Positions 3 to 18,992 of a stretch of DNA of 20,000 nucleotides are shown piece after piece. The notes under the pieces are model-generated. The model made no database searches and was not told the DNA's origin. It was given only the letters and a program-made list of their open reading frames with translations. The translations under genes and the position numbers were made by a program. The number at the start of each line of letters is the position of its first letter. Positions within the stretch are counted from its first letter, which is position 1. Source of the stretch: an uncultured virus (IMG/VR IMGVR_UViG_3300050581_000229) (lineage: Duplodnaviria > Heunggongvirae > Uroviricota > Caudoviricetes); the IMG/VR virus record IMGVR_UViG_3300050581_000229; one strand, written 5' to 3'.

Positions 3-629
3 GGCATTAAGCATGACAGCGCTAAAGTCATGGAGCTTCAATTGACTCCTAGCGGCTATAAGAATGGGCTTGGCGAATTGTGCGAACTGGAAAGCACCTA
101 TCTGTACCCGATGTTAAAGAGTTCGGATATTGCAAACAGCACAACTTCGGCACCGACACGTTGGATGATAGTTACACAACGGCATATTGGAGAGAGCACA
201 GAACCTATTAGGCACAGAGCCCCAAAGACATGGGAATACCTCAATAGTCATCACGAGTTGTTAGGCAATCGTAAGAGTAGCCTGTATAGGAACAGGCCAC
301 CATTCTCGATTTTTGGTGTTGGCAGTTACTCATTCTCGCCTTGGAAGGTAGCGATCTCAGCCCTCTACAAGAAACTACAGTTTGCTCTTGTTGCACCATT
401 TGAGGGCAAACCGGTAGTGCTAGATGATACCTGCAATTTTATTGCGTGCGAATCCAAAGAAGAGGCAACTTTCGTGCTACGGTTGCTCAACTCCGAGCCC
501 GCACAGCGATTTATTAGTTCGCTTATCTTCTGGGATGCAAAACGTCCACTTACTCTCGATATTCTAAATCGCCTTAACCTTGATCTGGTAGCAAATGAGA
601 TAGAGCCGATCAAGCGGATGTTATTTTGA
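3..629 (+). CDS. C-terminal part of a type II N6-adenine DNA methyltransferase, M.NspV-like (5'-truncated by the window edge)
   Basis: The frame is open from base 3 (GIKHDSAKVMEL). Motifs RKSSLY..RPPFSIFGVGSYSFSPWKVAISALYK and KPVVLDDTC match my recollection of the C-terminal region of the 'modification methylase NspV' family. The catalytic motifs lie outside the window. Confidence 0.75.
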   Translation, partial: GIKHDSAKVMELQLTPSGYKNGLGELCELESTYLYPMLKSSDIANSTTSAPTRWMIVTQRHIGESTEPIRHRAPKTWEYLNSHHELLGNRKSSLYRNRPPFSIFGVGSYSFSPWKVAISALYKKLQFALVAPFEGKPVVLDDTCNFIACESKEEATFVLRLLNSEPAQRFISSLIFWDAKRPLTLDILNRLNLDLVANEIEPIKRMLF

Positions 630-769
630 GTCCTTGCATAAAGAAGACAATCAAACTGCGTGGTTTCTTACTAGCAGCGCTTTCGGTGTCATGGGTTCCC
701 CTGTTGGGGAAATGATACTTCAGAAAGCGCAACGCTCTGGCGCTTGCCGCTTGCCTGATTACTTGACAG

Positions 770-1294
770 TCACTTATAAAGATATTCCGTCATCTGTGAC
801 ACGGGAACACTGGCTTCACCAGGGACATACACCACATCATCGCGGTAGCAATAGTAAAGAGCCTCCCAGCGCTCTCGGGCATGACGCCATTTAGGGACTT
901 CTTGCATTTCCACTTGAGCTACTCGTTGATTGTGAGTACGACGGCCTCGAACCATAATCACTAAGCCTAATACTATGGCACCAATAGAGACCAAGAACAT
1001 GAGTACATCTACTGTTGATCTCAAATGCGACATTAAGTTCCCTGCGGAAAAGAGGCCAAAGAACAGAAATGTGATACCCCCAAGCGCCATAAATATGATG
1101 TCTCCCTCACATCCTGAACTTGGTTTATTCGGTGCCTTTAGCTTCTGGGCTAGAGATGATACCTGTGTTCCACTGTATGAACCATCATAGCCCGCCCCTG
1201 ATACATGTTGCGTTTGATCTGCAACAATCGCGGAAACCTTCTGAACCTGATCGATTTGGCCGCAAACTGGACATGCGTGATTGCCTTTATCCAT
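770..1294 (-). CDS. Zinc-ribbon two-pass membrane protein, hypothetical
   Basis: 174 aa. N-terminal CPVCG, two hydrophobic helices (IIFMALGGITFLFFGLFSAG; VLMFLVSIGAIVLGLVIMV), C-terminal WEALYYCYRDD. Has its own promoter-like sequence. Confidence 0.75.
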   Translation of the reverse strand: MDKGNHACPVCGQIDQVQKVSAIVADQTQHVSGAGYDGSYSGTQVSSLAQKLKAPNKPSSGCEGDIIFMALGGITFLFFGLFSAGNLMSHLRSTVDVLMFLVSIGAIVLGLVIMVRGRRTHNQRVAQVEMQEVPKWRHARERWEALYYCYRDDVVYVPGEASVPVSQMTEYLYK

Positions 1295-1301
1295 GCCGCC
1301 T

Positions 1302-1329
1302 ATTGTAAAAAACGATCTTCGTTATGCAA
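1302..1329 (-). promoter_or_regulatory. Putative sigma70 promoter for 770..1294, probably leaderless
   Basis: Minus strand TTGCAT-N16-TACAAT ending 7 nt before the ATG at 1294; no Shine-Dalgarno. Confidence 0.5.
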
Positions 1330-1439
1330 CCGAGTCGCGTTGCTTGGCGCAACAGAGCAAATAGCCATTCTTGCCAGAAATCCCCTACGATATTTCATGG
1401 CTCATCACACAAGAGCACATGTCAGTTAGCATCAGACAA

Positions 1440-1468
1440 TGGACTACAATGAATTGGTTCGTTATACT
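1440..1468 (+). promoter_or_regulatory. Putative sigma70 promoter for the 1526..3794 operon
   Basis: TGGACT (1440-1445), 17-nt spacer, TATACT (1463-1468). GAGG at 1514-1517 precedes the ATG at 1526. Confidence 0.5.
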
Positions 1469-1525
1469 AAGTGAGAACGTTCTCGCCATCTATCCGCCTA
1501 ACCAAGTCTGGATGAGGCAAGTCAA

Positions 1526-2734
1526 ATGAGCCAAGTACCCAATCTTCGGTCGCGGGAAGCAGTGTTTGACTTCCTTGATGATTACGCATACCAGCGTAGA
1601 CAAGAGATTGATCGTCATCAACTCGGCGAAGGCCGTGGACTAATAAAGTCCTACGTCGTCGAGACATCGCCACATAACCCAACAATTGCAGAAACGGTGA
1701 AAGCCCTAAGGGGAACTGGATGGGATCTGGCACCTATAGAAGATGACCGTCTCTATTCAGTACAAGATAACAATGGAGAGCTTGGATATATCGAGCCTGT
1801 ATCGCCACGCTATTGGGCATTGCATACTTATCGCCAAACGAGCAAAGCTGACCCAGCAATACAGAGAACCGTGAGGGAAACACCTCAGCTAGATTCACTC
1901 TGGCTTTCTGGTGATTACTTCACGGCCTTGTGGAAGACACTTATACTACCGCAGTTTCCATATCGCTCCATCACGTTTAAATTCGAGCACAGGGCACGCT
2001 TTGAACCTAATGGTGTGCCAGAAAGCGATGACTTCGATGAAAACCAGGAGGAAGACATCGAAGAACAACCGGCATCAATATCGAGTATCACAGAGCGAGC
2101 ATCACGGATTGCCACATTCCTTCCAGACTTGCAAAAGGTTCATCCGCCCTTCAAAGCCATAAGAATGATGCGTATTCCTGCCGACAAATCGCCAGGGGGG
2201 TATGAGTTCTGGTCTTGGGGCAAAGTTACCTATCGCTCGGATGACTTCCGCGAAGGTCGAGAACAGGTATTCTCGATAACAAGGCTATATTCTCGGTTGA
2301 CCGAGGCTATTGAACAGAAGCTCTGGCTAAGTTTCGAGCGAATTAACCACACCGATGGCGAGGCATTAGCAATCACAGGTGCACCACTTACGTTAGAGTT
2401 CTCAAAACCACTTTCTAATGAGATTTATAACAACCTGCTAGATGTCACATTCGAGAATAGTCAAGGCCCCTTGCGGCTTTGGGGTAATCCCATACGGTTG
2501 AGTGCGAACCGAGCACATGTATACGGAGTAGATATGCACTTGTGGCAACGCATCTATCTAGACATCACACCTTACAGGATAGTTGCGATACTTCCTCGGG
2601 GCACCTGTGGTAACACGGCTCATCGCTTATTAACGAACGTGCAGCGTTTTGTCGATCCTGGCGTAAAGATGTGGATTGGTGATACTGGATATGACGAGCT
2701 TGTTCGTGGCACCCTACTAGGGAGGGATGGTTGA
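1526..2734 (+). CDS. Hypothetical protein (402 aa), gene A of a candidate defence operon
   Basis: Long ORF with promoter and RBS. Soluble alpha/beta pattern, acidic loop (ESDDFDENQEEDIEE), C-terminal LRLWG...DMHLWQ...CGNTAHRLLTNVQ. No family recognised. Confidence 0.85.
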   Translation: MSQVPNLRSREAVFDFLDDYAYQRRQEIDRHQLGEGRGLIKSYVVETSPHNPTIAETVKALRGTGWDLAPIEDDRLYSVQDNNGELGYIEPVSPRYWALHTYRQTSKADPAIQRTVRETPQLDSLWLSGDYFTALWKTLILPQFPYRSITFKFEHRARFEPNGVPESDDFDENQEEDIEEQPASISSITERASRIATFLPDLQKVHPPFKAIRMMRIPADKSPGGYEFWSWGKVTYRSDDFREGREQVFSITRLYSRLTEAIEQKLWLSFERINHTDGEALAITGAPLTLEFSKPLSNEIYNNLLDVTFENSQGPLRLWGNPIRLSANRAHVYGVDMHLWQRIYLDITPYRIVAILPRGTCGNTAHRLLTNVQRFVDPGVKMWIGDTGYDELVRGTLLGRDG

Positions 2735-3794
2735 CATGAGTTTTGAACAAACGCCGCTCTTCCAGTTGAACCTCATGATCTTCTTATCATGGCCCTCACC
2801 AAGTGTTGTTGTAGACCCATTATTCTATAAGGAGGGCTACGAACTCTACAAGATAGGACCTCGGATTCCTACCGCACTAGAGGCCCAAGCGCGTGCAAAT
2901 AGCAGTGTTCCTCCCATCCCTTTTACCCCAAGGCCATCGCCCGACATCGTTCTGCGGCATACTGAGAAGAAAACTATCTTAATAATAGAGTGTAAGAAGC
3001 AGAGTTTTGGGCCTGATAGCAAGCAAGCGAGCCAAGCAGCTTCGCTATTATCATGCGTCGGGCAGCATGTCGCGAGCGTGTTCGGCTTACCCTCAGAGGA
3101 ATGCTGGTCCTCGTTCCTTTGTTATGCGATGGGGGATAGTAACATTTCCGCAATGCAGGATACTATCAATGCCCTCGCTACCAAGCTAGAGGACACCTCC
3201 ATACCTGTAACCGATTCAGGATGTATAAGCATCACGGTATTACAGGATGGGGTATACATGGCAATGGAGCCGCGATCCAGGATTCCATTATCGGGCCTAC
3301 AAGATGCGACACAACCTGGCATAAAGGTCATGCCCCTTGCCGATGGTGATGATCCCCGGCCTCTCTACCTGATACCAATTGATCCCAGCATTACGGTTAA
3401 TGACGATTACGAAAAGTCGATGCTCTCGGAAAGGGTTCGGATGGCACTGGCGTCGTTGCTTGGTAGCCAGTTGGATCAAGGCGAGTTCGCGTTTGAACTT
3501 GATGATGTCATGCGTAGTGCTATAGAGGTATGGGACATGTGGGCAGATTATGATTGTCGTAAGTATGTAAAAAATGCTGTGCGCTCATACTTGCGGCTGA
3601 TATTTCGCGAAGTGAACAAGGTCGGTCTACAAGTTACTGTGGACCAAGACCGCCTGATGTTCCATCATGTAACGCCAAGTGTAGCTGCCGATACTCGACG
3701 CTACTTGAGTAGTGCAGCCTTTCGGAAGGGGCAAATTGATCTTTGGAGTTCATCTGTACAGCCAGATTTCAGCAACCTCGCGCATGGCTGGTAG
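2727..3794 (+). CDS. Putative PD-(D/E)xK nuclease-domain protein, gene B of a candidate defence operon
   Basis: SPDIVL...ILIIECKK (about 2937-2999) fits the PD-(D/E)xK motif, followed by Q-x-x-Q. Coupled to gene A. GGAGGG at 2721-2726 makes the ATG at 2736 the more likely start. Confidence 0.7.
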   Translation: MVDMSFEQTPLFQLNLMIFLSWPSPSVVVDPLFYKEGYELYKIGPRIPTALEAQARANSSVPPIPFTPRPSPDIVLRHTEKKTILIIECKKQSFGPDSKQASQAASLLSCVGQHVASVFGLPSEECWSSFLCYAMGDSNISAMQDTINALATKLEDTSIPVTDSGCISITVLQDGVYMAMEPRSRIPLSGLQDATQPGIKVMPLADGDDPRPLYLIPIDPSITVNDDYEKSMLSERVRMALASLLGSQLDQGEFAFELDDVMRSAIEVWDMWADYDCRKYVKNAVRSYLRLIFREVNKVGLQVTVDQDRLMFHHVTPSVAADTRRYLSSAAFRKGQIDLWSSSVQPDFSNLAHGW

Positions 3795-3856: not shown

Positions 3857-4258
3857 TCAGGCACTAACTGTGGAGTCGCTCTTCCACGTTCCCTCGCTTG
3901 TAAGCCACGCCGCCACCATCCCGCAGTTCGTTCTTTTCGCTTCCCCATCATTGGCAGCCTCGATGTACTCGTACCGCTTCTCCGGCAGGAAGTTCACCTG
4001 TGCGGGCTTCCCTTTCCGCTTCACGATCATCCCCACTTCCTGCATGGCGTCCGTGATCTTCTCCCACATCCCCTTTGTCACAGTAACGCCCTTCAACACC
4101 AAGCGCGGCGATTTCACCATCGCCGTATACGCAAATTGATCCCACCAGCCATAGCCTATAAACGCAGAGACGAACTGAAGCTCGTTAGGGATTACGCTGC
4201 CGTCTGGGTTCTTGAGCGTGAGGTCAACTTCTTTCCCATTTCCCCGAAATCGAATCAT
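3857..4258 (-). CDS. Hypothetical phage protein, possible winged-helix domain
   Basis: 133 aa, ATGA overlap with the upstream gene. VTKGMWEKITDAMQEVGMIVKR looks like a wHTH recognition helix plus wing. Confidence 0.65.
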   Translation of the reverse strand: MIRFRGNGKEVDLTLKNPDGSVIPNELQFVSAFIGYGWWDQFAYTAMVKSPRLVLKGVTVTKGMWEKITDAMQEVGMIVKRKGKPAQVNFLPEKRYEYIEAANDGEAKRTNCGMVAAWLTSEGTWKSDSTVSA

Positions 4259-4563
4259 AGAGTAATGTCTATTTGGTTTCCTGTCCGCGAACAGTGGTAT
4301 CCGGCAGACTCGAACATCTCCATCACAGTATCCGCGTCGTCCGATGTATCGAAGTTTCCACGGATTCCGACAAGGCGATATTCTTCCAAGTTCACGCCGT
4401 CGCTTTGAGGATAGAGAGCGTGGAACATATCTTCGATCTTGCCTCTCATTTCCTCAAAGTTCGTAGCTGTAATCAACACCTCGGATTCATACAAATCCGA
4501 GACTTTTCCCCAACCACCATTTCGATACGGCACAAAGATTAGCACGAAGTAAATGTATTTCAT
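4255..4563 (-). CDS. Hypothetical phage protein
   Basis: 102 aa, tiles the strand, preceded by an extended -10-like TGCTACAAT. Confidence 0.7.
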   Translation of the reverse strand: MKYIYFVLIFVPYRNGGWGKVSDLYESEVLITATNFEEMRGKIEDMFHALYPQSDGVNLEEYRLVGIRGNFDTSDDADTVMEMFESAGYHCSRTGNQIDITL

Positions 4564-4577
4564 GGTGAACCCGAGGT

Positions 4578-4586
4578 TATTGTAGC
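4578..4586 (-). promoter_or_regulatory. Possible extended -10 promoter element
   Basis: Minus strand TGCTACAAT in the 32-bp gap upstream of the ATG at 4563. Confidence 0.3.
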
Positions 4587-4595
4587 AATCAGATG

Positions 4596-5183
4596 CTATT
4601 TACGCGATTGGCTGGGCAGTGGTCCGCGCTGCTGAATCGGCGGGGGCGGTGGCACCTTCTGCGCTGGCTTAACGGTGTACTTCGCGTCGTAGTAGACCTT
4701 CCAATCGTGCGTCACGAATTGCCACGACAGCATGAAGAACCATTCCGAGAAGCACAGCAGGAAAGCGAGCACGATGACGGCAATCGCGGTGATCGTCGTC
4801 ACACTTCCCGCCTCATACGCCTTCGCCTGCAACACGGCCAGGTTTGAGATGAAGTCATAGCTGTACATGCCCAACAGCAACGCATACATGAAGATCGTCA
4901 CGACCGTGGACTGCTCTCTCCGCCAATCCTCCGTCATGAGCGCCCGCGAGATGAGCAATTCTCCCGCGCTATTGAAGAACACGGTAAACAGAATCGCCAA
5001 TCCCCGGCCAGTGATAGGTTCGATGAACCTCTCTGAGATCAGCAGGTTGCCGACGATCATCCCGCCGCTGACCAGCACCGCCACCGCCGAGAACATCAGG
5101 TTCGAGCTTTGCTGGCCTTCCGAAATCTTGCCCTTATCAACCTTCCCGGTCACGCCGGAAATATCAAAGAACTTGCTACTCAT
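4596..5183 (-). CDS. Four-pass membrane protein with Pro-rich tail
   Basis: 195 aa, four hydrophobic segments, ends VPPPPPIQQRGPLPSQSRK; 8-bp overlap with the upstream gene. Confidence 0.75.
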   Translation of the reverse strand: MSSKFFDISGVTGKVDKGKISEGQQSSNLMFSAVAVLVSGGMIVGNLLISERFIEPITGRGLAILFTVFFNSAGELLISRALMTEDWRREQSTVVTIFMYALLLGMYSYDFISNLAVLQAKAYEAGSVTTITAIAVIVLAFLLCFSEWFFMLSWQFVTHDWKVYYDAKYTVKPAQKVPPPPPIQQRGPLPSQSRK

Positions 5184-5664
5184 TGAACTTCAGACTTGTA
5201 TTCCGCTTGAACGCTTCGCCGCATTCGCTGGACCAAATACGCTGCGGCATCACCCACAGACCTAACGGCGCGTAGGACACCGGATCACTTGGGCCTTTCC
5301 CCGTTACCTTGTCGATCCCGAACCACTTCACGACCTCCGGGTCGAGCAGCACCATGCTATCGTCCGCCAAGAAGACGGATTGGACGACCTCACCTAATGC
5401 GTGGTCAAAAACGCAGATTGGCGCACGCTCGAAGGTCTTCTGCGAGCCCGATTTCACAATCCGATCAGCCTCGTTCTCCGGCTTGGTATAGACACGAATG
5501 TCTGAGCCAAGGAACTCACACGCCAATTCTTCGTCTTTGAAGGAGGCCACATTTGCGACGTGTTCCTTCTTGATAAGCCATATACGATCCGATACCCACG
5601 AATCGCCCAGCAGGCACGTTCCGTGCTCAAACATCTCACGAGTTAGATAAACTTTGTCACCCAT
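5176..5664 (-). CDS. Hypothetical protein, weakly sliding-clamp (beta-clamp)-like
   Basis: 162 aa. WVSDRIWL and C-terminal LWVMPQR echo the clamp motifs ATDGHRL and YxxMPxR. Confidence 0.6.
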   Translation of the reverse strand: MGDKVYLTREMFEHGTCLLGDSWVSDRIWLIKKEHVANVASFKDEELACEFLGSDIRVYTKPENEADRIVKSGSQKTFERAPICVFDHALGEVVQSVFLADDSMVLLDPEVVKWFGIDKVTGKGPSDPVSYAPLGLWVMPQRIWSSECGEAFKRNTSLKFNE

Positions 5665-5677
5665 GTGAACCTGAACC

Positions 5678-5703
5678 GCGAGGGGCCTTTCGTGGCCCCT
5701 CGC
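5678..5703. other. GC-rich intergenic hairpin
   Basis: Perfect 10-bp inverted repeat GCGAGGGGCC-N6-GGCCCCTCGC; no U-tract on either side. Confidence 0.7.
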
Positions 5704-5709
5704 TACAAC

Positions 5710-6318
5710 CTACAGCCCCAATTCCTTCGCGATCTCAGTCAGCCCCTTATGAGCCTTCACGAGCATATCGACCCGCTTCAGGTCTTCGGTGCGCTTCTGC
5801 GTTGCCAGGTAGGTCTTCAATTCCCCGATGTTGGCGAAGATATGGGTGCCACCTTTCGACTCGACACGTGTATCTTCATCGCTATCGTCTTCAGGATCAT
5901 CGCCCATCGCGATACCGAACACGCCCATCAGCGCGTATTTCTTCGCGCCGGTCTGAGCCTTGTACGGAGCCTTGTCGCCTGAGTCAACGCCTTCACCCGC
6001 GAACTCGCCTGGCACTTGCCACACGTCGCCCGTTTCGCTATCAACCAGGATGACGTTTGCGAGTAGCCGCCAATAAGAGTCCCAACCCTTATTGCCATTC
6101 GCGCGCTCTTTCTCAACGATCTCCCAGGTGGGATTCCCGTTGCTCACGATGACGCTCAGGCCGACTTCCTGGCACGCCCTTTTGACTGCCGAGATCAAAT
6201 CCTCCGCCCTGGTATAGCTATATTTCTGTGAAATATTCACACCAGTCTTCTCAACCCAAACCAACTTTCCCTGGGCTGCAAACAACTTCTTCGCAATAGA
6301 TTCTGGAATTTTCTCCAT
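5710..6318 (-). CDS. erf: ERF-superfamily ssDNA annealing protein
   Basis: KTGVNISQKYSYTRAEDLISAVK...GL and GEGVDSGDKAPYKAQTGAKKYALMGVFGIAMGDDPE are typical ERF signatures. Confidence 0.9.
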   Translation of the reverse strand: MEKIPESIAKKLFAAQGKLVWVEKTGVNISQKYSYTRAEDLISAVKRACQEVGLSVIVSNGNPTWEIVEKERANGNKGWDSYWRLLANVILVDSETGDVWQVPGEFAGEGVDSGDKAPYKAQTGAKKYALMGVFGIAMGDDPEDDSDEDTRVESKGGTHIFANIGELKTYLATQKRTEDLKRVDMLVKAHKGLTEIAKELGL

Positions 6319-6345
6319 AGTTAGCCTCGATAAAAGCGGTAGATG

Positions 6346-6693
6346 CTACCCTGTCACCAAACATCCCCTCACTGTCTTCTTCAACTTCATGGGTAAAGCC
6401 CGTAACCAGGCATCAATCACTTCTTCCCCATAGGAATTGATGAGATGGCGCATGTTGGCGCGGTTCATCTCCGCCGTCATGTTCTCGTTCTGCCAATCCG
6501 TGACAACCACCAGGTTCATTGGGCACGTCAAGATGGCCTGTCTCGCGGGAGAACTTACCGGCACATCACTGCGCTGGACAAAGACCTCGTGAAGAGCACC
6601 GCCGCAGTTTGGAAGAGAGGTTCCATCAATGGGACTCTTGCATCCCTGGCGAAGCCATACTTGCCACTTCACCGCGAGACGTTCTGCATCCAT
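6346..6693 (-). CDS. Hypothetical protein, degenerate HNH/NinG-like
   Basis: C..IDG...C.G.LHEVFVQR...PMNLVVV resembles the H-N part of an HNH motif, but the terminal CxxCH is missing. AAGGTG RBS. Confidence 0.55.
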   Translation of the reverse strand: MDAERLAVKWQVWLRQGCKSPIDGTSLPNCGGALHEVFVQRSDVPVSSPARQAILTCPMNLVVVTDWQNENMTAEMNRANMRHLINSYGEEVIDAWLRALPMKLKKTVRGCLVTG

Positions 6694-6934
6694 TGGCTTT
6701 CACCTTCTGAGAATCGATCCGTTTGTTGCACTCCGCCCGCAAAACGCTTCCCGCCCTCCGAACCATGAATTCGATTGCGTACAACTCATCCTGATCTAGT
6801 TCCTTAAAGCTGCGAATCTTCCGGCCAATCAGGTCACTCGCGATCTCGTATCGAAATCGGCGTCCTATCGTGTGATCCCACAGCCGCGCCAGTTCAATCG
6901 CGTTCCGCTGCGACCAACCACCTACCTGGATCAG
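6626..6934 (-). CDS. Probable small hypothetical protein, start uncertain (CTG in a CTGA overlap)
   Basis: This open frame fills the 6694-6930 gap (LIQVGGWSQRNAIELARLWD...IRSFKELDQDE). The 5' part of track ORF 6626..7210 is a shadow of 6931..7341. Confidence 0.45.
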   Translation of the reverse strand: MIQVGGWSQRNAIELARLWDHTIGRRFRYEIASDLIGRKIRSFKELDQDELYAIEFMVRRAGSVLRAECNKRIDSQKVKANGCRTSRGEVASMASPGMQESH

Positions 6935-7341
6935 GCTTCGGCAGGCTCGACAGCTTTTCGCAAATGGCTCCGCAGGTATTTGTTCTTCTTGCGCCCATAT
7001 CGCGGGTTCTCGCGCATCTTGCGCACCGTTACGGCTTCCAATATCCGATACACCCCATCCCAATTGATAAACGTACATATCTCCCCATCCTGAACAACGA
7101 CAGGCACCTGGCGGCTCTGGACCGTCACGAGGTAGATTTCCTTCCCGTTCTCCCCATCCGCCGCTTTCCGGGCAATCCCCTGTTTGATCTGGGAGAGAAT
7201 GTCGTACCAAATCTCCCAGGTCAGTTCGATGCCATATCGTTCTTCTGCTCGCCTTTTACAATGAATAAACCGCGAAATCAGGCGATCCTGCGCAGTGTCC
7301 CATCTGGCATCGTCGTTGGGATCGCTTGAATCATGATCCAT
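6931..7341 (-). CDS. Hypothetical phage protein
   Basis: 136 aa, GGAG RBS. HCKRRAEERYGI...VPVVVQDGEICTF (H-x-x-x-R-x-x-ER) resembles small RelE-like-fold phage proteins; basic tail. Confidence 0.7.
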   Translation of the reverse strand: MDHDSSDPNDDARWDTAQDRLISRFIHCKRRAEERYGIELTWEIWYDILSQIKQGIARKAADGENGKEIYLVTVQSRQVPVVVQDGEICTFINWDGVYRILEAVTVRKMRENPRYGRKKNKYLRSHLRKAVEPAEA

Positions 7342-7520
7342 AGCGCTAACTCCGTTGGCTCCCCCTCGCTATCCAGGAACCCGCGCCTGGCGAGTTCCTG
7401 GATACGCCTGCTCATGCCTTCAACCGTATCAACATCTTCCGCGCCTAACACACCAGCCTCACACACGCACATGAGCGTATACATGTTGTCCGGGTCGTGA
7501 ATCCATTCCCAGTTCGTCAC
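7278..7520 (-). CDS. Hypothetical protein
   Basis: 80 aa, GTGA overlap with the upstream gene. Confidence 0.55.
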   Translation of the reverse strand: MTNWEWIHDPDNMYTLMCVCEAGVLGAEDVDTVEGMSRRIQELARRGFLDSEGEPTELALWIMIQAIPTTMPDGTLRRIA

Positions 7521-7717
7521 TCGATGGAGACCTCGATCCCGCTGATCGCTGCCCCGCCAACCAACAACGCCCTGGCGAACACGTCGAAGTCCCCCGAATC
7601 ACACACCCCACGCGCTGCTTCCGCGTCGTTGATGTAGACGGTGAAATAGGTCGCTTCGCCGAGACTATCGCTGTGCGTTGCTGACTTCACTCTGATAAGC
7701 GTTGAGTCGTTGTTCAT
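7517..7717 (-). CDS. Hypothetical protein
   Basis: 66 aa, tiles the operon; start uncertain. Confidence 0.5.
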   Translation of the reverse strand: MNNDSTLIRVKSATHSDSLGEATYFTVYINDAEAARGVCDSGDFDVFARALLVGGAAISGIEVSIE

Positions 7718-7883
7718 ACTCCCATTGCACCTCTTGCGCGTGATGCCGCGCTCTCTCTATCCTGGCGAACATTTCCTTTGTCGCCTGGCCGCGCTTGCTA
7801 GCGTGGGTCACGAAACTTGAGATGTGGTCATATTCATCCCACGCCGCTTGCGCTTTACCATATAGTTCATATAGCTCAGTCAT
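7665..7883 (-). CDS. Hypothetical helical protein
   Basis: Start moved to MTELYELY (ATG 7883, GGAG upstream), overlapping the prim-pol stop. Confidence 0.6.
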   Translation of the reverse strand: MTELYELYGKAQAAWDEYDHISSFVTHASKRGQATKEMFARIERARHHAQEVQWEYEQRLNAYQSEVSNAQR

Positions 7884-8622
7884 GTCTACTCCCAACCGCC
7901 GACTGGATTGTTTTGCGTATCTCACGCTCACCCAATCCAATCCCCAAAGCGGTAGGGGCCAACATCCTCTCAATCTCCATTCCCGACTTACCGTTTTCCG
8001 CTAATCGGCACGCGGCCCAGTAGAGGCTCGCGTTCCGACACCCTGGCTGTGCCGTCGCCAACCAGCGCGTGATGGCATCCGGTGAACCATCACCTATGAC
8101 CGGCTTCGTGGCCTTACGCGGTTTCTCTTCTTTGTCGAGCATGTAAGCCAGAAGGCTTGGGAATGGCGCTACCGGCTGGTTTGCTTTCTGCCAGCGATAG
8201 GCGTTCCCGGATGGGTGAATACTCGGCGGAAGGATGATGTAACCACCCGCGCCGCGAATATCGACGCCCTTCGCCAACTTCGACGCGGAGTTGTGGATTT
8301 CGAGATAAGTCGAATAGATCAGGTGGAATCCGCCGCCGCCAGTGACAGATGTGGCGGTTTCGGGAATGACTTCGTGGTATTGCCTGTATAGCGTCTTCCA
8401 AGCTTCCAGCCCTTCCGCGTCGATGTCCACGACTACTAACCCGGATGGGCCGCAAGCCAACCCAATGTTCGCCTGCGGCCACTTGCCCCACCATCCCCTG
8501 ATTACCGCCTCGTCACAGGAAGCGTCTTTCACGCCGTGCTCGGTGATGGGCGTCTTGCCTCGCGGCTTGATCGGGAATACCCACCATCCGCGATCTGCAT
8601 ATTGCACTGCCGCTTCGAGCAT
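7876..8622 (-). CDS. Bifunctional DNA primase/polymerase (prim-pol) with PriCT-1-like C-terminus
   Basis: GWWVFPI..GKTP...ANIGLACG.SGLVVVDID...TGGGGFHLIY...GVDIRGAGGYIILPPSIHPSGNAYRW, then GCRNASLYWAACRL...EIRKTIQSA. Start moved to MLEAA. Confidence 0.93.
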   Translation of the reverse strand: MLEAAVQYADRGWWVFPIKPRGKTPITEHGVKDASCDEAVIRGWWGKWPQANIGLACGPSGLVVVDIDAEGLEAWKTLYRQYHEVIPETATSVTGGGGFHLIYSTYLEIHNSASKLAKGVDIRGAGGYIILPPSIHPSGNAYRWQKANQPVAPFPSLLAYMLDKEEKPRKATKPVIGDGSPDAITRWLATAQPGCRNASLYWAACRLAENGKSGMEIERMLAPTALGIGLGEREIRKTIQSAVGSRHD

Positions 8623-8624
8623 GG

Positions 8625-8834
8625 CTACACGCTGATGTCCAATTGCTCTTTCGCCCACTGCCGTAGTTGCTCATCAAGTGCATCCACGGTTCCCCATCCC
8701 CACACAATGTAATCATTGTTGTCGCCCACGACCCAACTCCCATCCGGGAAGATGGAGACCACATACGGGAAGTCCTCTTTGAACGCTTTACTGTACGCGG
8801 CCTCGATCTTCTTGAACGTATTCAGCCATTCCAT
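8625..8834 (-). CDS. Small Trp-rich hypothetical protein, paralog 2
   Basis: 69 aa; about 37/69 identical to 8837..9052 by manual alignment. Confidence 0.8.
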   Translation of the reverse strand: MEWLNTFKKIEAAYSKAFKEDFPYVVSIFPDGSWVVGDNNDYIVWGWGTVDALDEQLRQWAKEQLDISV

Positions 8835-8836
8835 CG

Positions 8837-9052
8837 CTACCAAACCTCAATTCCAAAGCACTTCTCAGCCCACCGCCGCAACTGCGCATCCAAGTCGTCA
8901 ACCGTGGGCCACGACCAGACTGGCTCGTACCGCTCATCCATGATGGCCCAACTCCTGTCTGGGAAGATGACAACGGCGTATCCAAAGTCCTCGTTGTAGA
9001 TGGCGTCATGTGCCGCCTCAATCTTCTGGAATGTCTCAAGCCATCGCATCAT
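8837..9052 (-). CDS. Small Trp-rich hypothetical protein, paralog 1
   Basis: About 70 aa; overlaps the helicase stop; paralog of 8625..8834. Confidence 0.8.
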   Translation of the reverse strand: MMRWLETFQKIEAAHDAIYNEDFGYAVVIFPDRSWAIMDERYEPVWSWPTVDDLDAQLRRWAEKCFGIEVW

Positions 9053-10409
9053 CCAGCCCTGTCTTGTGCTCAATCACTTCAATAATGCGGCTTCTGTCAC
9101 CGAAACGGAAGACCGGGATGCGCCCCACGCCACGCCCAAAGGAGTTCTTCTCAAGCCACAAGTTCCCGAAGCACGAAATCTCCCCCTCGCCCTGGATGAA
9201 CTGCTTGCCTTTCAGGATTGGATGCGGCACGCACAGCGTGTCCTTAAGCTCTCTGAAGTCCAGCACCAGGCCATAGTTGGGCCGTTGGGCAATATTGGAG
9301 CTTCCCTTACCGTCAAGCAGATGAGGCCGCCAACCCTTACCCGTGCTGGTTTGGCTGGCCTTGTCCATTTGCTGAATGATGAACGACACCGTTTTGCTGT
9401 GCTGGTTATAGGTCTTTAGTTCTCCGAGGAAGACGCCGATACGATTGGCCTCGTTTGAGCCCTTCTTAGAATCGTTGAGTTCCGGGGCCATATCGAGGTA
9501 GTCGTAGATGATGTCCGCCTTGTACTTCGTGGCTTCTGAGATCACCCAGGATAACGGTTTACCCGCCGCTTCCCAATAGATCACTCTCCCGCCACCAGGA
9601 TAAGGCGTGAGGCACGCCAGGTCTTCTTCCGACACATTCCCTTGCAGGCAGTCATCCAATGGCTTGCCCGTCCGATCCGCTATGTCGCGGCAGATCATCT
9701 GGAAGTTGGTAAGCTCTGTGGAGCAATAGAGCACCGTGCGATGATGCTCCCTGGCCCACCAGTGAGCTACCCGCCGCGCAAACATGGACTTGCCTACACC
9801 TGTTGGCGCAACCAGCATGGATAGCGTGCCATAGTCGATATAGGGCACCCACTTGCGAAGTGTGGGGATGTCATTCGGCCAGGTTAATAGCTTTCCCGAC
9901 TTCACCGCTTCCCGACGATCCCTGAACATCAGCGCCGCTTTCGTCTGCCAATCGTCCGTCGATACGAACTCCGATTCATCATGGACAGATAGCTGTGTTA
10001 GGCCGCTGTTAAGGATTTCCGCCGCCTGCTGAACCGTGATCTTCCGGGCACGCAATTTCTCTTGCGTTTCCCTCAGTAACCGGCCTGCCTCATCCTCCGA
10101 GTGCAACTCCCGTAGCAGGCGAACATTCGTATCAATGTTCACCTCACCATACTTATCGAGTAGCCCCAGGACATCCTTCACTTCACCCGGCTCGGTCTCA
10201 AGACCATCGTGGGTCATCTGCTTGGCAATTGCCACCGCGTTGTCATCCTGCACAATCCTGATGGCTTTGTAGAACGACTTCGCCTGCGGATCGGTGAAGT
10301 AATCGATGACTTCCGGGTAGAAGTCCAACATCCTTTGCCCCGAACCATCCTTATAGGATGCCAGGGCCGCTACAGTCTGAAGCTCTAAAAAACGATTAGT
10401 CCCATTCAT
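9036..10409 (-). CDS. DnaB-like (SF4) replicative helicase
   Basis: Walker A APTGVGKS, H1a LYCSTELT, H2 IIYDYLD, H3 IIQQMDK, H4 GKGSSNIAQ, plus a helical N-terminal domain. Start moved to ATG 10409 because the longer start spans a terminator. Confidence 0.88.
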   Translation of the reverse strand: MNGTNRFLELQTVAALASYKDGSGQRMLDFYPEVIDYFTDPQAKSFYKAIRIVQDDNAVAIAKQMTHDGLETEPGEVKDVLGLLDKYGEVNIDTNVRLLRELHSEDEAGRLLRETQEKLRARKITVQQAAEILNSGLTQLSVHDESEFVSTDDWQTKAALMFRDRREAVKSGKLLTWPNDIPTLRKWVPYIDYGTLSMLVAPTGVGKSMFARRVAHWWAREHHRTVLYCSTELTNFQMICRDIADRTGKPLDDCLQGNVSEEDLACLTPYPGGGRVIYWEAAGKPLSWVISEATKYKADIIYDYLDMAPELNDSKKGSNEANRIGVFLGELKTYNQHSKTVSFIIQQMDKASQTSTGKGWRPHLLDGKGSSNIAQRPNYGLVLDFRELKDTLCVPHPILKGKQFIQGEGEISCFGNLWLEKNSFGRGVGRIPVFRFGDRSRIIEVIEHKTGLDDAMA

Positions 10410-10417
10410 GTTCCGAC

Positions 10418-10445
10418 AAAAAAGCCGCGAGGATAACTCGCGGCT
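10418..10445 (-). terminator. Rho-independent terminator
   Basis: Minus strand AGCCGCGAG-TTATC-CTCGCGGC followed by TTTTTT, just after the stop at 10463. Confidence 0.75.
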
Positions 10446-10462
10446 CATGTTTCAAAACAAGC

Positions 10463-10828
10463 TTATTCCCAACGACCCATCATGAACCATTCCGGCTCAC
10501 GCATATCGATCCCCATGACCTTGCAGAAGTCAACAAGGTGCACCATATCGGGCGTGATTTCCGACAACCCTGTCACAGGACACGCACTCCCATCTGTCAT
10601 CTCGATGCTTTTCGCCGCCACGTAACACGAGTCATCATTTCCACCGTCTGGACAATTGTTGTAGATGTAGCAATAGCATCCTGCCTTCCGAGTGTCATCG
10701 CAAAACTCGCTGTAGCCAATACCTTTCTTGAGGGAGTACCACTCATCCCAGGAGTATCCTGCTTCCTTCCACGGCTGCTTATCGACTTTGAATCCCCAAA
10801 ACGAAATTGCTTTAAACCGCATCCCCAT
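10463..10828 (-). CDS. Hypothetical phage protein
   Basis: 121 aa, TAATG overlap with the upstream gene; aromatic/Cys-rich. Confidence 0.7.
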   Translation of the reverse strand: MGMRFKAISFWGFKVDKQPWKEAGYSWDEWYSLKKGIGYSEFCDDTRKAGCYCYIYNNCPDGGNDDSCYVAAKSIEMTDGSACPVTGLSEITPDMVHLVDFCKVMGIDMREPEWFMMGRWE

Positions 10829-11310
10829 TATGACAACCCCAATTCCTTCAACCGCTCATCCGATACGGTCTCAACCTCAACGGTAGATTCTGGTTGGGAG
10901 CCCAACTGACCCTCAAGCAACACCTTCCGTACCGCTTGCAGCCTGCCAACGTCTTCCGTGTGCGCGGCCATGATCTGCTTCTTGATCTCAGACCACTCGT
11001 GATCCTTGAGCATGGCGATCAATGCACCGCGCAATTCGTCGTTGAAATTGAACGAGTACGACGGCCCGAGGAACTTCCTTAACCAGTTGATCGGCTCATT
11101 GGGTAGCGCACCCGCTACTGGCCGATCACGCTTCCCGAATCCTGAGAGGCGGAAGGTGATTCCTTCCTTCTCGAAACCGGAGTTGGGGATTCTGACTGTT
11201 TCACCCGAGGGAAATCTATACAGCGGCCCTAACCTGCGGCTATCGCGAATCTCCACTTCGTCGTTCGTCTCATCGATGTAATGCTCATAAGCGATAACGA
11301 CTTCCCTCAT
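10828..11310 (-). CDS. Hypothetical phage protein
   Basis: 160 aa, ATGA overlap. Confidence 0.7.
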   Translation of the reverse strand: MREVVIAYEHYIDETNDEVEIRDSRRLGPLYRFPSGETVRIPNSGFEKEGITFRLSGFGKRDRPVAGALPNEPINWLRKFLGPSYSFNFNDELRGALIAMLKDHEWSEIKKQIMAAHTEDVGRLQAVRKVLLEGQLGSQPESTVEVETVSDERLKELGLS

Positions 11311-11522
11311 AGGTCATCGTCCGTTTCGGCGTCCATCGTGTCCGCGATCCCCTTGGCGGCATCCGCTGCTTCCGAGGCAGATACTTGGACCGATTCGACA
11401 TTCACGTCGATACTTTTGAGGAATGAGGCGATGCGCTCCAACTCAAGCGTGATCGTACTTAGTTGCTCTGACACATGCTCCACTACTTTCGTCTGTTCCT
11501 GAATTGCCTGAGCCGTCGTCAT
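11307..11522 (-). CDS. Small acidic coiled-coil protein
   Basis: Start moved to MTTAQ (ATGA overlap); heptad-like pattern, acidic tail. Confidence 0.65.
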   Translation of the reverse strand: MTTAQAIQEQTKVVEHVSEQLSTITLELERIASFLKSIDVNVESVQVSASEAADAAKGIADTMDAETDDDL

Positions 11523-12334
11523 TGCATTCTCCAATTGATGATCTTGTCCGTGGCCCGTTCAAAGGCTTCCCCCAGGCCATCATTAACAACCAGCGTGTAC
11601 CGCCGCTTGCCATCCTGCAATATCTCAACGTTGCCATCCACCAGCACGATCTCCTTCTTGCCCTTTCGCTCCCGAAGCTCGGCTTCCATTTGCACGGAAG
11701 TAACCGAGTCGTCCATCATTCGGTCGTACACCAGGTCAACCGTCTCTTTTGAGACCTTTCCGGTGCGAGCCTTCTCGTCTGAAACGGCGGAGATCGCGAA
11801 GCGCACCTTATCCGGCACCGAAATGCCGCAACCGGATTCGTCGATGATGGTTGCCATCAGGTCATCCGTCACTTCGTGGCCGTTCGCGATAAGCTCAGGC
11901 AGCAGCTTCGACAGGAATAGGCTCAGCATCTTGCGCTGGTATTCGGATAGCGCGAGATCAAGGTGAGTTTCTTCGTACCAGATTTGGAGCATCCCGCCAA
12001 TCGTCTTGGTGGAGCGATCTTCCAGAACCGGCTTGACAATCGCAATCTGGCCTGAGAGGAACGCATCTCGTAGTGCAATCGCGATAAATGCGTGCATGTT
12101 GGTGATTGCGATCCCTGCGGCGGCCACCTTCGCCATTAGCTTCTCACCCGCGCAACGGCGGATGTGCGCCTCGTCCGTTTCCCCTGGCAACTTCGGCATT
12201 ACCGTCCGAATTGAGCCCTGATCCCACAATACGTCTAGCAAAGCGTTGACCGCCTGCGCCCCCCTAACCGGATCATGTTCGGTTACAAATTCAAGCGCTG
12301 CGGGCGATCCATACGCTACGACCTCACGTTGCAT
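11519..12334 (-). CDS. Hypothetical protein (271 aa)
   Basis: Long ORF, GAGGGG RBS, coupled on both sides. Confidence 0.75.
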   Translation of the reverse strand: MQREVVAYGSPAALEFVTEHDPVRGAQAVNALLDVLWDQGSIRTVMPKLPGETDEAHIRRCAGEKLMAKVAAAGIAITNMHAFIAIALRDAFLSGQIAIVKPVLEDRSTKTIGGMLQIWYEETHLDLALSEYQRKMLSLFLSKLLPELIANGHEVTDDLMATIIDESGCGISVPDKVRFAISAVSDEKARTGKVSKETVDLVYDRMMDDSVTSVQMEAELRERKGKKEIVLVDGNVEILQDGKRRYTLVVNDGLGEAFERATDKIINWRMQ

Positions 12335-12891
12335 ATAGCCCCCTCGATTGACTTGTAAATGTGATGTGTGGGCGGGATGTGGAATAGCCCGCCCCCGTAT
12401 TCCAACTTGAAATCCTTGAACTCAGTGTCCGCCGTAATCAAACGGAAAGCGCGTTGGCGTTCCAGCGATTCGTTCGCCGCGATCTTGCGCCTTCCCCCAA
12501 GCTTCATCTCGGTGGCGAGATAGCTTTCAGGCGGGATGAGAAATAGGCTCGCCTTCTCTTGCGAGATTCTGGGTGGGCGTACCCGCTCCGGGTATAACCA
12601 GAGCGCAATGTAGTATAGGGAATGTGTTGGAACAGCCACCTGCTGCCACCAGCTGCGCTGGGCCAGTGACCATCCCTCGCGATCCTCTGGGTTATTTGGA
12701 TTCCCCAGATACGCAGACCCGAAAAATGCTTTGCACTCAATGCAGATAACAACGGCTGGAAACCCCTCGATCAGATTCGCAAAAACAAAGGAATCGGGCC
12801 GTCCAGATTGGTATTGCGTTTGCCCGGTTGTCCTCGCGAATGTAGCGTTTGCATTGTATACCCAGCACCATCCTGGAATTTTGTTCACCAT
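12316..12891 (-). CDS. PD-(D/E)xK endonuclease, Holliday-junction resolvase/VRR-NUC-like
   Basis: SGRPDSFVF...ICIECKA...SLAQRSWW matches G-x-PD...IE-x-K...S-x-x-Q. Start uncertain (12891 or further upstream). Confidence 0.65.
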   Translation of the reverse strand: MVNKIPGWCWVYNANATFARTTGQTQYQSGRPDSFVFANLIEGFPAVVICIECKAFFGSAYLGNPNNPEDREGWSLAQRSWWQQVAVPTHSLYYIALWLYPERVRPPRISQEKASLFLIPPESYLATEMKLGGRRKIAANESLERQRAFRLITADTEFKDFKLEYGGGLFHIPPTHHIYKSIEGAICNVRS

Positions 12892-12907
12892 CCGTGCCAG
12901 TGGTGCC

Positions 12908-13759
12908 CTACAATACTGATTCTCCTTGCCCAAATACCAACACTCCGTCCTCCTTGAATGACGTTGTGTATACATCGCCAGAACAGTGCCAGCAATGCCC
13001 GAAGTAGGGGCAGTTCACATGAATTGCGCCCAGTTTCCGGTCGGTCGGGTATGCTTTGTCCGCCTTCTCGCTACAACACTCACCTGGGCGGAACTCCGGC
13101 TCCGGCAACTCCACGACTGCGCGGTTCTGGCGCTCGATTTCCTCATCAAGCTCTTCATCGCTGACCGTGGCAATCTCATCGCGGTATTCGTGTTGGAATA
13201 TCGCCGCTCCCCGTTCGTGGCGGAACGTGTAGATGTTGTCGCCCGTGCGATTCTGCATGACGAGGAAGCCACTGTTGATCCCACTCATACGCATGTATGC
13301 CGCGCACTGGAACGCCCACTTGGGATTGATCTTCCAGGCATCGGTGCGCTTGAACTCAACTAACGACTTACCACCACAAGTGGTAATGACGGAATCTGCG
13401 CGACCCACGACCTTATCGCTCTCGAATGAGACTTCATGCTGAGCACCCTCTACAAGTGTCGAGGCGTTTGCCGTCCACGTCAGCGCTTCCTGCCACAATT
13501 CGGCCACCATGTTCCCTTCTCGGAACATATTCAATAGCGCGTAATTGTTGTGCGGCAGCAGGTGCGGATGCGTCGGCTCGGTCCCCAATCGGTCATAAGC
13601 CGAGGCAATCGGGCACACGCCCAATCTGCTTGCCCTGGCCCTCTTCTCACCGTGGCGACGATCACCTTTCGGGAGATCGACATGCACGCGATCCCCGCCA
13701 TCATCCAGGTATTGCAGATAACCCTTGTGTATCCCGCGCAGTAGTTCCGGCGTAATCAC
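12908..13759 (-). CDS. Cas4/RecB-like PD-(D/E)xK exonuclease with probable Fe-S cysteines
   Basis: RASRLGVCP, EGNMVAE, VVGRADSV, LVEFKRT, FQCAAYM, C-terminal CC...CPYFGHCW. GTG start at 13759 in a GTGA overlap. Confidence 0.8.
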   Translation of the reverse strand: MITPELLRGIHKGYLQYLDDGGDRVHVDLPKGDRRHGEKRARASRLGVCPIASAYDRLGTEPTHPHLLPHNNYALLNMFREGNMVAELWQEALTWTANASTLVEGAQHEVSFESDKVVGRADSVITTCGGKSLVEFKRTDAWKINPKWAFQCAAYMRMSGINSGFLVMQNRTGDNIYTFRHERGAAIFQHEYRDEIATVSDEELDEEIERQNRAVVELPEPEFRPGECCSEKADKAYPTDRKLGAIHVNCPYFGHCWHCSGDVYTTSFKEDGVLVFGQGESVL

Positions 13760-13968
13760 TTCTTCACCTCCACACCTAGCGGGGTGAAGTGCAGATCGGT
13801 TGAAGGCATTCCCTGCCACCACATTGAGGCCATCGCTTCGCCGTTTACGTTATCTACTGAAACACCCGCCACCGCCGTATCCTTCTCGTCCAGCACATAC
13901 AGGTCGATCCCCATATCGCTGGAACGGAGTTGCAATTTCATTCCACAGTGCTCAAAAGTAAAATTCAT
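13756..13968 (-). CDS. Hypothetical protein
   Basis: 70 aa, ATGA overlap, GGAG RBS. Confidence 0.65.
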   Translation of the reverse strand: MNFTFEHCGMKLQLRSSDMGIDLYVLDEKDTAVAGVSVDNVNGEAMASMWWQGMPSTDLHFTPLGVEVKK

Positions 13969-14186
13969 GCCAACGAATCTCCAATATTGCAGATAGTGAC
14001 GTTTCGATATTGCCTGCCATCAACCTCAAGACTTCCCCCTTCCAGGTAGTAAATGTGTGGATTTGCTGGATCGGCCTGTAGATAGACGGATACACACGCG
14101 CCTTGCATTAGCTCCACCCGATCTACCGGGCCAATCCTCACCGAATCGACGCCATCGTTCCAGGCATAGACATACAGGTTTAGCAT
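13965..14186 (-). CDS. Hypothetical protein
   Basis: About 73 aa, beta-rich; ATG at 14186 (track start 14192 is TTG). Confidence 0.6.
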   Translation of the reverse strand: MLNLYVYAWNDGVDSVRIGPVDRVELMQGACVSVYLQADPANPHIYYLEGGSLEVDGRQYRNVTICNIGDSLA

Positions 14187-14222
14187 CCACAAAACGGTAG
14201 AGAATCATTACAATCGTTAGTT

Positions 14223-14777
14223 ATGTCTGATGAATTTAAGTACGTTGAGAAGGCTCGCAAGCTTGGGGTGGACGTAGAAAATCCAACTGCCATGCACTAT
14301 CTCGTGAACGGGATTCGCTACTGCGAGGCCAGATTCCAGAACCCGACAGCCAACAGGTCTCAACTGGCGGACATCCTGGGTTTGCGGACGCCAGAAGAAG
14401 TGGACTTCTTGCGCAGGAACAACTACATCGGGATAGCCAGCGAGATTGTCTTTGAGACCCTGATGGAAGAGATGGCACAAACGGATTTGCGCCAACGAAT
14501 CCTCAAGCTCTATCACGACGACTACTATGACTGGCTATCCAACATGAGCCGCATCGCGGCTGGGAAAGCACCCGCAGATGGTGGTAAACGTCCACTTGAC
14601 CGCGATCAGGTCGCTGCCTTTACCGCACTGCAAAGCACTCAAACCCACGAAGCGTTCCTGAAGATGCTATTTCTGCCTGACCAAACCGAGAGCGCGGAAT
14701 CCCAATACCTTGTCACCCGCAAACAACTTCAGGATTCCTCGGATGTCATTGACTTGGATAACCCGACAAACTCATAA
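14223..14777 (+). CDS. Hypothetical HTH protein, possibly small-terminase-like or regulatory
   Basis: The only convincing plus-strand gene in the element. NRSQLADILGL is HTH-like; helical C-terminus with DRDQVAAF; TACAAT 8 nt before the ATG. Confidence 0.7.
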   Translation: MSDEFKYVEKARKLGVDVENPTAMHYLVNGIRYCEARFQNPTANRSQLADILGLRTPEEVDFLRRNNYIGIASEIVFETLMEEMAQTDLRQRILKLYHDDYYDWLSNMSRIAAGKAPADGGKRPLDRDQVAAFTALQSTQTHEAFLKMLFLPDQTESAESQYLVTRKQLQDSSDVIDLDNPTNS

Positions 14778-14932
14778 CCGATTACGCCAGGCTTGAGGAA
14801 TTGCGCGGCATCCCCCTCAATCCTGGTGTAACTAGCCGTTCCTTCCCCGAACTCAACGTCTATCTCGTTCGGCAACTCATCGTAGTCAAGCTGTTCACCG
14901 GAGAACGGGCCACCGTACAGTGTTATTACCAT
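14729..14932 (-). CDS. Small hypothetical phage protein
   Basis: 67 aa beginning ITLYGGPFSG, a GGP-x-x-G motif common in small phage proteins; coupled to the GT2 gene. Confidence 0.65.
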   Translation of the reverse strand: MVITLYGGPFSGEQLDYDELPNEIDVEFGEGTASYTRIEGDAAQFLKPGVIGYEFVGLSKSMTSEES

Positions 14933-15708: not shown

Positions 15709-15750
15709 GCGATTAACCTTAGAGGCTGGAACTCACATTGTGAAGAGGGG

Positions 15751-15781
15751 GAAATGGGCCAGTTTCAAGCTGGCCCACTTC
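15751..15781 (-). terminator. Hairpin, possible terminator after 15783..16589
   Basis: Minus strand GAAGTGGGCCAG-CTTGAAA-CTGGCCCATTTC; only a short U run, then pyrimidines. Confidence 0.5.
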
Positions 15782-15782
15782 T

Positions 15783-17888: not shown

Positions 17889-17889
17889 G

Positions 17890-18933: not shown

Positions 18934-18950
18934 ACATGATGGACGGTAGA

Positions 18951-18992
18951 GAAAAATAGAAAAGCCCCGCGAGAGATGTACTCTGCGGGGCT
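18951..18992 (-). terminator. Rho-independent terminator downstream of the integrase
   Basis: Minus strand AGCCCCGCAGAG-TACAT-CTCTCGCGGGGC followed by TTTTCTATTTTTC. Confidence 0.8.

Follow-up and report, generated by a model that had tools for sequence, protein, structure and literature searches.

A conserved two-gene module joining an MJECL33-family protein to a predicted PD-(D/E)xK endonuclease, a candidate mobile defence system

What is the role of two adjacent genes, here named A and B, that lie together at the left side of a 20,000-nucleotide stretch of DNA recorded as an uncultured Caudoviricetes virus (IMG/VR IMGVR_UViG_3300050581_000229)? This stretch, referred to as the window, corresponds to C109:25757-45756 of a 58.6-kb contig, and an earlier note made from its letters alone had regarded the pair as a candidate undescribed anti-phage system composed of a protein of no recognised kind and a PD-(D/E)xK nuclease. 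The computational follow-up reported here indicates that A and B form a conserved, co-inherited unit. On balance it also favours, as somewhat likelier right than wrong, the interpretation that this unit is an autonomous, self-contained and mobile two-gene module most likely defending against phages or other invading DNA.

The two open reading frames (ORFs) that had been read from the region, one of 402 aa at 1526-2734 and one of 355 aa at 2727-3794, were found to be real and intact, and the pair is present in single copy in the source genome (Table 1). The second frame does run from 2727, but its start had to be corrected, and the ATG at 2736, yielding a protein of 352 aa, is more likely, because it is placed 1 nt past the TGA stop codon of A (2732-2734), is preceded at 10 nt by a GGGAGGG sequence, and makes B agree with the 352-aa database form (P0098) and with its homologues at the N-terminus. 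From the ATG at 2727, B would overlap A by 8 nt, and the translational coupling described for the two ORFs stands with either start. Neither protein presented a Walker A motif (P-loop) or the methyltransferase motif IV pattern [DNS]PP[YFW] in motif scans, and neither has a transmembrane helix, because the maximum 19-aa hydropathy is low (0.74 in A and 1.38 in B), all of which agrees with the first reading of the sequence. The claim that the pair has its own σ70-like promoter did not hold as well: a site preserving 9 of the 12 canonical positions exists upstream of A, but the four sites of this kind in the 3.7 kb from 600 to 4300 are not above the number obtained in shuffled sequences (4.9 ± 2.6). 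A promoter-like site no better than chance would be compatible with one or both ORFs being decaying remnants or chance ORFs, an explanation that is hardly credible, since both are full length against homologues at 53-59% identity, retain all invariant residues, and produced confident AF2 models (A, pLDDT 88.5; B, pLDDT 86.7).

The association between the two genes was evaluated in 80 genome loci encoding A, out of 150 relatives found (at least 150 species genomes carry A), and ORFs in these loci were called naively by choosing the longest ones greedily. In 71 of the 80, the next ORF after A was a same-strand member of the B family, full length in 64; the nine loci devoid of B comprised three that ended at a contig edge and six with other genes at that place. 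The search started from B recovered 30 loci, and A was directly upstream in all 27 with room for it, the other three beginning at a contig end. Moreover, the pairwise identities of A and B were strongly correlated across 65 pairs (Mantel r = 0.90; 0/999 permutations as high), and therefore the two genes moved as one unit. Apart from A and B, no neighbour was common to more than 12 loci. These observations bear out the linkage of the pair across homologous neighbourhoods, and A is a near-obligate genomic partner of B within a conserved module inherited as a whole. A 336-aa ORF placed after A in one locus (L071) was considered as a divergent B and rejected, the hhalign probability being 0.2%.

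Protein B revealed no above-threshold match in local Pfam-A or NCBIfam, its sole trace there being a sub-threshold match to HSDR_N_2 (residues 71-112, E 0.0011), of a kind seen in only 3 of the 24 members of its alignment. The PD...ECK signature reported near its N-terminus was confirmed, PD being at residues 72-73 and ECK at residues 88-90, and the full-length homologues preserved P72 and [D/E]73 in 63 of 64 cases each and E88, K90 and Q103 in 64 of 64 each. The model of B is divided into a nuclease domain, about residues 1-200, and a winged-helix-like C-terminal domain, about residues 230-335, and the protein also carries an invariant DPRPLYLIPxDPS linker. Its list of fold matches includes FokI, PaqCI, SdaI and McrC, and because all of them have Z < 8 the assignment of a restriction-endonuclease-like fold rests on the consistency of this list together with the motif. 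No Foldseek match at E <= 1e-3 was obtained for B in PDB or BFVD, and sequence searches of A and B against solved structures, by single sequence or by profile, retrieved nothing useful. The conserved signature and the predicted fold nonetheless uphold the earlier assignment, and B is shown to be a predicted PD-(D/E)xK endonuclease with a putative DNA-binding domain of winged-helix type at its C-terminus.

Protein A belongs to PF25924 (MJECL33), a family of Pfam 38.1 without assigned function. In fact, A itself and all of its 96 homologues in a large protein collection bear the precomputed tag PF25924 (PF25924.1), and the ESM Atlas puts A in MJECL33 clusters of Pfam 38.1 (score 0.96, TM 0.89). 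The local Pfam-A copy, which was devoid of PF25924, and NCBIfam gave no match above threshold, and among the PHROG families A matched phrog_22469 (2.4e-23), annotated as of unknown function. The family is large, and the profile of A reached 809 representative clusters (50% identity) at E <= 1e-3, 595 of those at E <= 1e-10. The membership of B is less direct: B itself is untagged, among its 33 homologues in the same collection only one (P0122) is tagged PF27326, the MJECL32 family of Pfam 38.1, the comparison with the MJECL32 cluster of the ESM Atlas gave TM 0.69, and the hhalign comparison of the B alignment with the downstream gene of Methanocaldococcus jannaschii gave E 2.7e-4 and a probability of 41% over 75 columns around PD...ECK. 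Protein B thus seems to resemble PF27326, the link being one of structure and motif.

In terms of structure, the confident model of A points to a partner protein probably built of TBP-like/CENP-L/RdgC-like alpha/beta modules. The likeness to RdgC was tied with unrelated folds, and all scores lay in the range flagged as unreliable; no Foldseek match at E <= 1e-3 was recovered in PDB or BFVD, the A profile found 0 matches among PDB sequences at E <= 10, and no KwaB or other PADLOC model and no Pfam family matched A, for which the earlier note had suggested, as speculation, the RdgC/KwaB type. The RdgC, CENP-L, Iml3 and TBP-like scaffolds show no sequence similarity to A and apparently no functional residues in common with it. 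The conservation of A is nevertheless high, with 14 positions invariant in 79 of 79 homologues, a pattern that suggests purifying selection. These positions include D336, H338, C361, G362, N363 and R367, each kept in 79/79 homologues, and the invariant polar cluster is formed by D336, H338, C361, N363, R367, N371 and Q373. Residues 359-367 (window 2600-2626) constitute an invariant G-T-C-G-N-T-x-H-R stretch that holds a C-x5-R motif (C361-GNTAH-R367). The motif resembles the loop that binds phosphate in arsenate reductases and Cys-based phosphatases, where C-x5-R joins a strand to a helix within a fold of flavodoxin-like or rhodanese-like type. The fold matches listed for A do not support this resemblance, as they include no phosphatase, ArsC or rhodanese. 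Fused or longer forms of A, including an A-B fusion, were not found in a search that constitutes weak evidence, and the longer A representatives P0269, P0167, P0231, P0233, P0245 and P0263 carried no Pfam domain.

The two Pfam families are named after adjacent genes of the M. jannaschii plasmid pDSM2661_1, and A matched this plasmid (NC_001732.1 40122-41339) by tblastn with 24.4% identity, E 1e-19 and 94% cover. The M. jannaschii pair shares with A-B its gene order and coupling, an A-like gene being followed by an overlapping gene with the PD...ECK stretch of B, and differs from it in that the B-like protein is longer (438 aa). MJECL33/MJECL32 copies are annotated as 'hypothetical protein' throughout RefSeq, and both families are without assigned function. 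In the context of characterised PD-(D/E)xK defence and restriction nucleases, such as BsmI, the FokI and PaqCI cleavage domains, NucS/EndoMS, McrC, Can2, SduA, HamA and LmuA, B has in common the [D/E]...E-x-K arrangement followed by a conserved Q and the defence-island setting. It is unlike them in lacking membership of any Pfam, NCBIfam or PADLOC nuclease family, in its invariant linker, and in its obligate MJECL33-type partner. Against PADLOC-DB v2.0.0, a library from 2023 that leaves later systems outside, A and B matched 0 families even at E <= 1. The literature searched, which excluded supplementary tables of defence screens, contained no paper mentioning PF25924, MJECL33, MJECL32, phrog_22469 or MJ_RS09135, and nothing relevant for PF27326 or PF27341. 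The earlier statement that the pair matches no named system therefore remains correct as regards PADLOC models, and it is to be amended in that the pair is not wholly uncatalogued, MJECL33 and MJECL32 being entries of Pfam 38.1.

The case for a role in defence comes from the neighbours of the pair. Two ORFs on each side were scanned in the 80 loci (265 ORFs) with PADLOC v2.0.0 at E <= 1e-15, and matches were taken as specific after removing generic mad3/ABC, Ser/Thr kinase, RtcR and TniQ ones. A PADLOC match was found for 52 of the 265 adjacent ORFs, 46 of them specific, compared with 3 of 62 random ORFs, taken from eight randomly chosen regions of the source genome, all generic mad3 and 0 specific (Fisher p = 5.4e-5), and with 10 of 70 more distant ORFs of these loci (6.5 kb or more away from the pair), 6 of them specific. 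The specific adjacent matches were spread over 30 of the 80 loci and were diverse. They comprised restriction-modification (R-M) components, namely type III Mod and Res, type I M and S, and type II M and R, in addition to BrxD with BrxHI, a CBASS cyclase with its effector, a retron reverse transcriptase, DISARM DrmD/DrmMI, HmaA/HmaB and several PDC candidates. Similarly, Hachiman was found 1 kb from the pair on the B. cereus plasmid pBFR_2. The enrichment anticipated for homologous pairs was thus obtained against random ORFs of the own genome, and the A-B pair frequents defence islands.

The M. jannaschii plasmid copy (L084, NC_001732.1 33170-48318) adjoins an OLD-family ATP-dependent endonuclease with a 292-aa partner, an EVE-domain gene, a PIN-domain gene and VapBC, surroundings that look like a small archaeal defence island.

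Several observations weigh against the defensive interpretation. The comparison of adjacent with far ORFs of the same loci was not significant (Fisher p = 0.09), and 50 of the 80 loci had no PADLOC match at 1e-15 within two genes. The random control consisted of one genome and 62 ORFs, from a taxon unlike most loci; the loci are phylogenetically clustered, for example 11 in Bacillales and 11 in Acidimicrobiia, so that counts do not represent independent events; and the neighbour counts derive from crude, naive ORF calling. Moreover, in about 13 loci away from contig ends an intact A was accompanied by a broken B or by none, and such loci may reflect a role of A without B or decaying copies. 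Finally, the lack of any match of A or B to a known defence model makes the call of defence one of guilt by association.

The position of the pair inside other systems raises the question of whether it belongs to them. The pair was located within type III operons, in the order Mod-A-B-Res in L027 and Res-A-B-Mod in L042 and L043. In three further loci (L046:8701-13311, L047:145-4882 and L060:2-3430) a Mod homologue was split at a point corresponding to residues 348|351 of the intact L027 Mod, with the pair between the two halves (ModN-A-B-ModC). The A proteins of these three loci are identical under three phylum labels and stand for one event, and this identity reflects either the very recent spread of a single element or mis-binning of the contigs. 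The type III association required at least three gains on the A tree. In three Acidimicrobiia the DISARM gene drmD was directly after A or a B remnant (L063:9944-18921, L069:9929-14842 and L079:9905-13734), with drmMI also present in L063; A was intact in all three, with B fragmentary in L063 and L079 and missing from L069. The close relatives L073 and L072 retain a full B, and Hma flanks the pair in L072 and in L049. Comparable placements are known for embedded defence genes, i.e. the Hma-embedded HEC candidates and the insertions into BREX, R-M and DISARM, which A-B resembles by occurring between mod and res, in a split mod, before drmD and flanked by hmaA/hmaB. It differs from the Hma-embedded candidates in that no HEC model matches it and that it occurs by itself, beside unrelated genes, in the majority of loci.

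An explanation that takes this nesting at face value is that A-B is the restriction arm of methylation-based immunity, a two-subunit nuclease that would depend on a neighbouring methyltransferase for self-protection and would supplement or replace Res in type III-like, DISARM or Hma systems. A methyltransferase (MTase_I, II or III, DrmMI, DrmMII or HmaB) was in fact present within two genes of the pair in 16 of the 80 loci, and in the window one ends 0.9 kb upstream; the tight operons with Mod and Res, the insertion exactly between the split Mod halves and the repeated gains on the A tree argue in the same direction. This explanation is judged unlikely, given that 64 of the 80 loci, long and well-assembled contigs among them, have no methyltransferase within two genes, that the type III-like loci retain their own Res with its nuclease domain, that the methyltransferase of the window is already served by an adjacent full-length REase_II, and that the three split-Mod loci count as one event. 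The reading of A-B as an autonomous module is instead that it would need no cognate methyltransferase and yet has been repeatedly recruited beside or inside methylation-based systems.

How such a module could work can be outlined. A and B would be made together by translational coupling and act as a complex, in which A would be the sensing or licensing subunit, reading either an infection signal or some property of foreign DNA, and would then release or direct DNA cleavage by B. One particular form of this mechanism, a sub-case of the autonomous module, is that of a modification-dependent type IV-like enzyme, in which A recognises modified phage DNA and B cuts it, serving as a back-up against escape by modification. 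It would explain why a nuclease is tolerated without a cognate methyltransferase in most loci, and it agrees with the union in B of a nuclease and a winged helix, as in many type IV and type IIS enzymes (the FokI, PaqCI, SdaI and McrC matches), and with the EVE-domain gene near the M. jannaschii copy. It is distinctly unlikely nonetheless, no SRA, EVE/PUA or YTH domain being among the fold matches listed for A (50 from VIA, besides those from Foldseek) and no PADLOC type IV model matching the pair. A more elaborate proposal, which joins these elements and is held to be unlikely, is that A is a new TBP-like/RdgC-like DNA reader whose Asp-His-Cys-x5-Arg pocket would sense an end, a modification or a phosphate-linked group and license B, the pair being a portable second line nested in methylation systems that would catch methylated escapers.

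The distribution of the pair is that of a mobile trait, and its position in a low-GC islet (46-48% against 58.7% in the genome) points the same way. In a search of 40 relatives, 6 of them congeneric, 18 from the same family and 16 from the same class, A was not found, and near-identical pairs were found in metagenome-assembled genomes assigned to different phyla. On the A tree, very short branches link copies from Nitrospirota, Planctomycetota and a phylum of the Candidate Phyla Radiation, a pattern that fits recent transfer. Nine plasmid records bear the pair (tblastn), A had no match in 50,697 phage records (tblastn), and the flanking mobile genes vary between loci.

Among Bacillales, a 243-aa PemK/MazF-like toxin gene (Pfam PemK_toxin, 6.2e-12) is placed directly upstream of A in all 11 rows, which form one monophyletic clade (e.g. 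L010:9029-9766; see also L085:6052-6789). Three of these 11 loci adjoin TniQ, and this adjacency suggests that the pairs in question are Tn7-like cargo.

These associations admit another explanation, namely that A-B serves mobile elements, and not immunity, as a module for maintenance, recombination or addiction. An RdgC-like DNA-binding protein with a nuclease could, for instance, act in the stability of plasmids or islands, in the control of recombination or in competition between elements. The nine plasmid records, the toxin gene and TniQ neighbours in Bacillales, and, in the window, the abutment of the pair on an integrative element that encodes ERF and a Cas4-like exonuclease would all be accounted for. 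It is considered quite unlikely, since genes for defence are much commoner beside the pair than those for replication or partition, its mobile flanks vary from locus to locus, A is unmatched in the phage records, and the likeness to RdgC is shared with unrelated folds. The autonomous defence module, by comparison, remains the interpretation preferred here.

The genomic surroundings of the source locus, whose coordinates are collected in Table 1, were described in the earlier note as an R-M methyltransferase on one side and a prophage-like element on the other. The methyltransferase was confirmed. Because it has its own restriction enzyme, whose gene overlaps the methyltransferase gene start, A-B is not the nuclease of that system; A-B as the restriction enzyme of the adjacent type II R-M was also rejected on the ground that the closest A-B homologues have other neighbours. 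The element to the right was only partly as described, since it carries an integrase and a replication and recombination module, and no capsid, terminase, tail or other phage structural gene was recognised in it by Pfam and PHROG scans, and its appearance is closer to that of a satellite or integrative element than to that of a complete prophage. Among the sequencing runs listed, the stretch occurs in DNA runs of a single study and in no RNA run. A comparison of the integrase side with the contig's left part revealed no att-like direct repeat, no tRNA was found, no notable repeats were present in 1-5000, and no Rfam family was detected in the window. The region of the pair is more AT-rich than this module, as had been noted, with 47.6-48.4% GC over 1501-3000 against 51-59% over 4501-16500 and 58.7% in the genome, and the low-GC trough (46-48%) extends over contig positions 21000-29500, taking in the type II R-M pair plus A-B.

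The minus-strand ORF of the spacer upstream of A had HD_5 as its only match, below threshold (E 0.0075), and the spacer neither resembled any ORF of the 80 related loci nor occurred a second time in the genome. Farther upstream on the same contig, outside the window, there is a run of very large same-strand ORFs of about 2690, 1506, 777 and 328 aa (L113:3650 to L082:978, L082:1361-5881, L082:5878-8211 and L082:8232-9218, respectively), with a GC content of 54-58%, under the genome mean, and with no Pfam, PHROG or PADLOC match.

Table 1. Features of the A-B locus and its surroundings, in window coordinates unless another record is named
Feature	Position	Strand	Description and basis
Restriction enzyme REase_II	L082:13492-14157, upstream of window		Cognate full-length restriction enzyme, overlaps methyltransferase gene start; PDLC03454 1.2e-98
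Type II methyltransferase	3..629	+	C-terminal 208 aa (of 490 aa); PADLOC MTase_II 4.7e-73; full protein PDLC03310 2.3e-158
Spacer	630..1525	.	0.9 kb; holds one 174-aa minus-strand ORF, 770-1294
σ70-like site	1440..1468	+	TGGACT-17-TATACT, possible promoter of the pair; 9/12 matches, weak
Gene A	1526..2734	+	402 aa; MJECL33-family (PF25924); three predicted alpha/beta modules; ORF call, homologues and AF2
Invariant C-terminal cluster of A	2531..2626	+	Codons of D336, H338, C361-G-N-T-x-H-R367 (C-x5-R); homologue alignment
Shine-Dalgarno-like sequence for B	2719..2725	+	GGGAGGG within the end of A; read directly from sequence
Gene B	2736..3794	+	352 aa from ATG 2736 (355 aa from ATG 2727); predicted PD-(D/E)xK domain and winged-helix-like C-terminal domain
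Predicted catalytic motif of B	2940..2996	+	Codons of P72-D73 ... E88-C89-K90 (numbering from ATG 2727); alignment, sub-threshold HSDR_N_2
Integrase-bearing element	3857..20000	-	ERF, Prim-Pol, DnaB-like helicase, Cas4-like exonuclease, glycosyltransferase, integrase at 19014-20000; Pfam and PHROG matches

If the pair protects, it would constitute a compact two-gene system spread over many bacterial phyla and archaea, as reflected by the number of A clusters and of species genomes in which A was found. Its larger subunit, devoid of a recognisable relative, could reveal a new mode of sensing foreign DNA, and its nesting in type III R-M, DISARM and Hma would provide a test case for layered defence. 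Protection would also supply a function for two Pfam families that now have none, and if the pair does not protect, it would still represent a well-defined mobile nuclease module.

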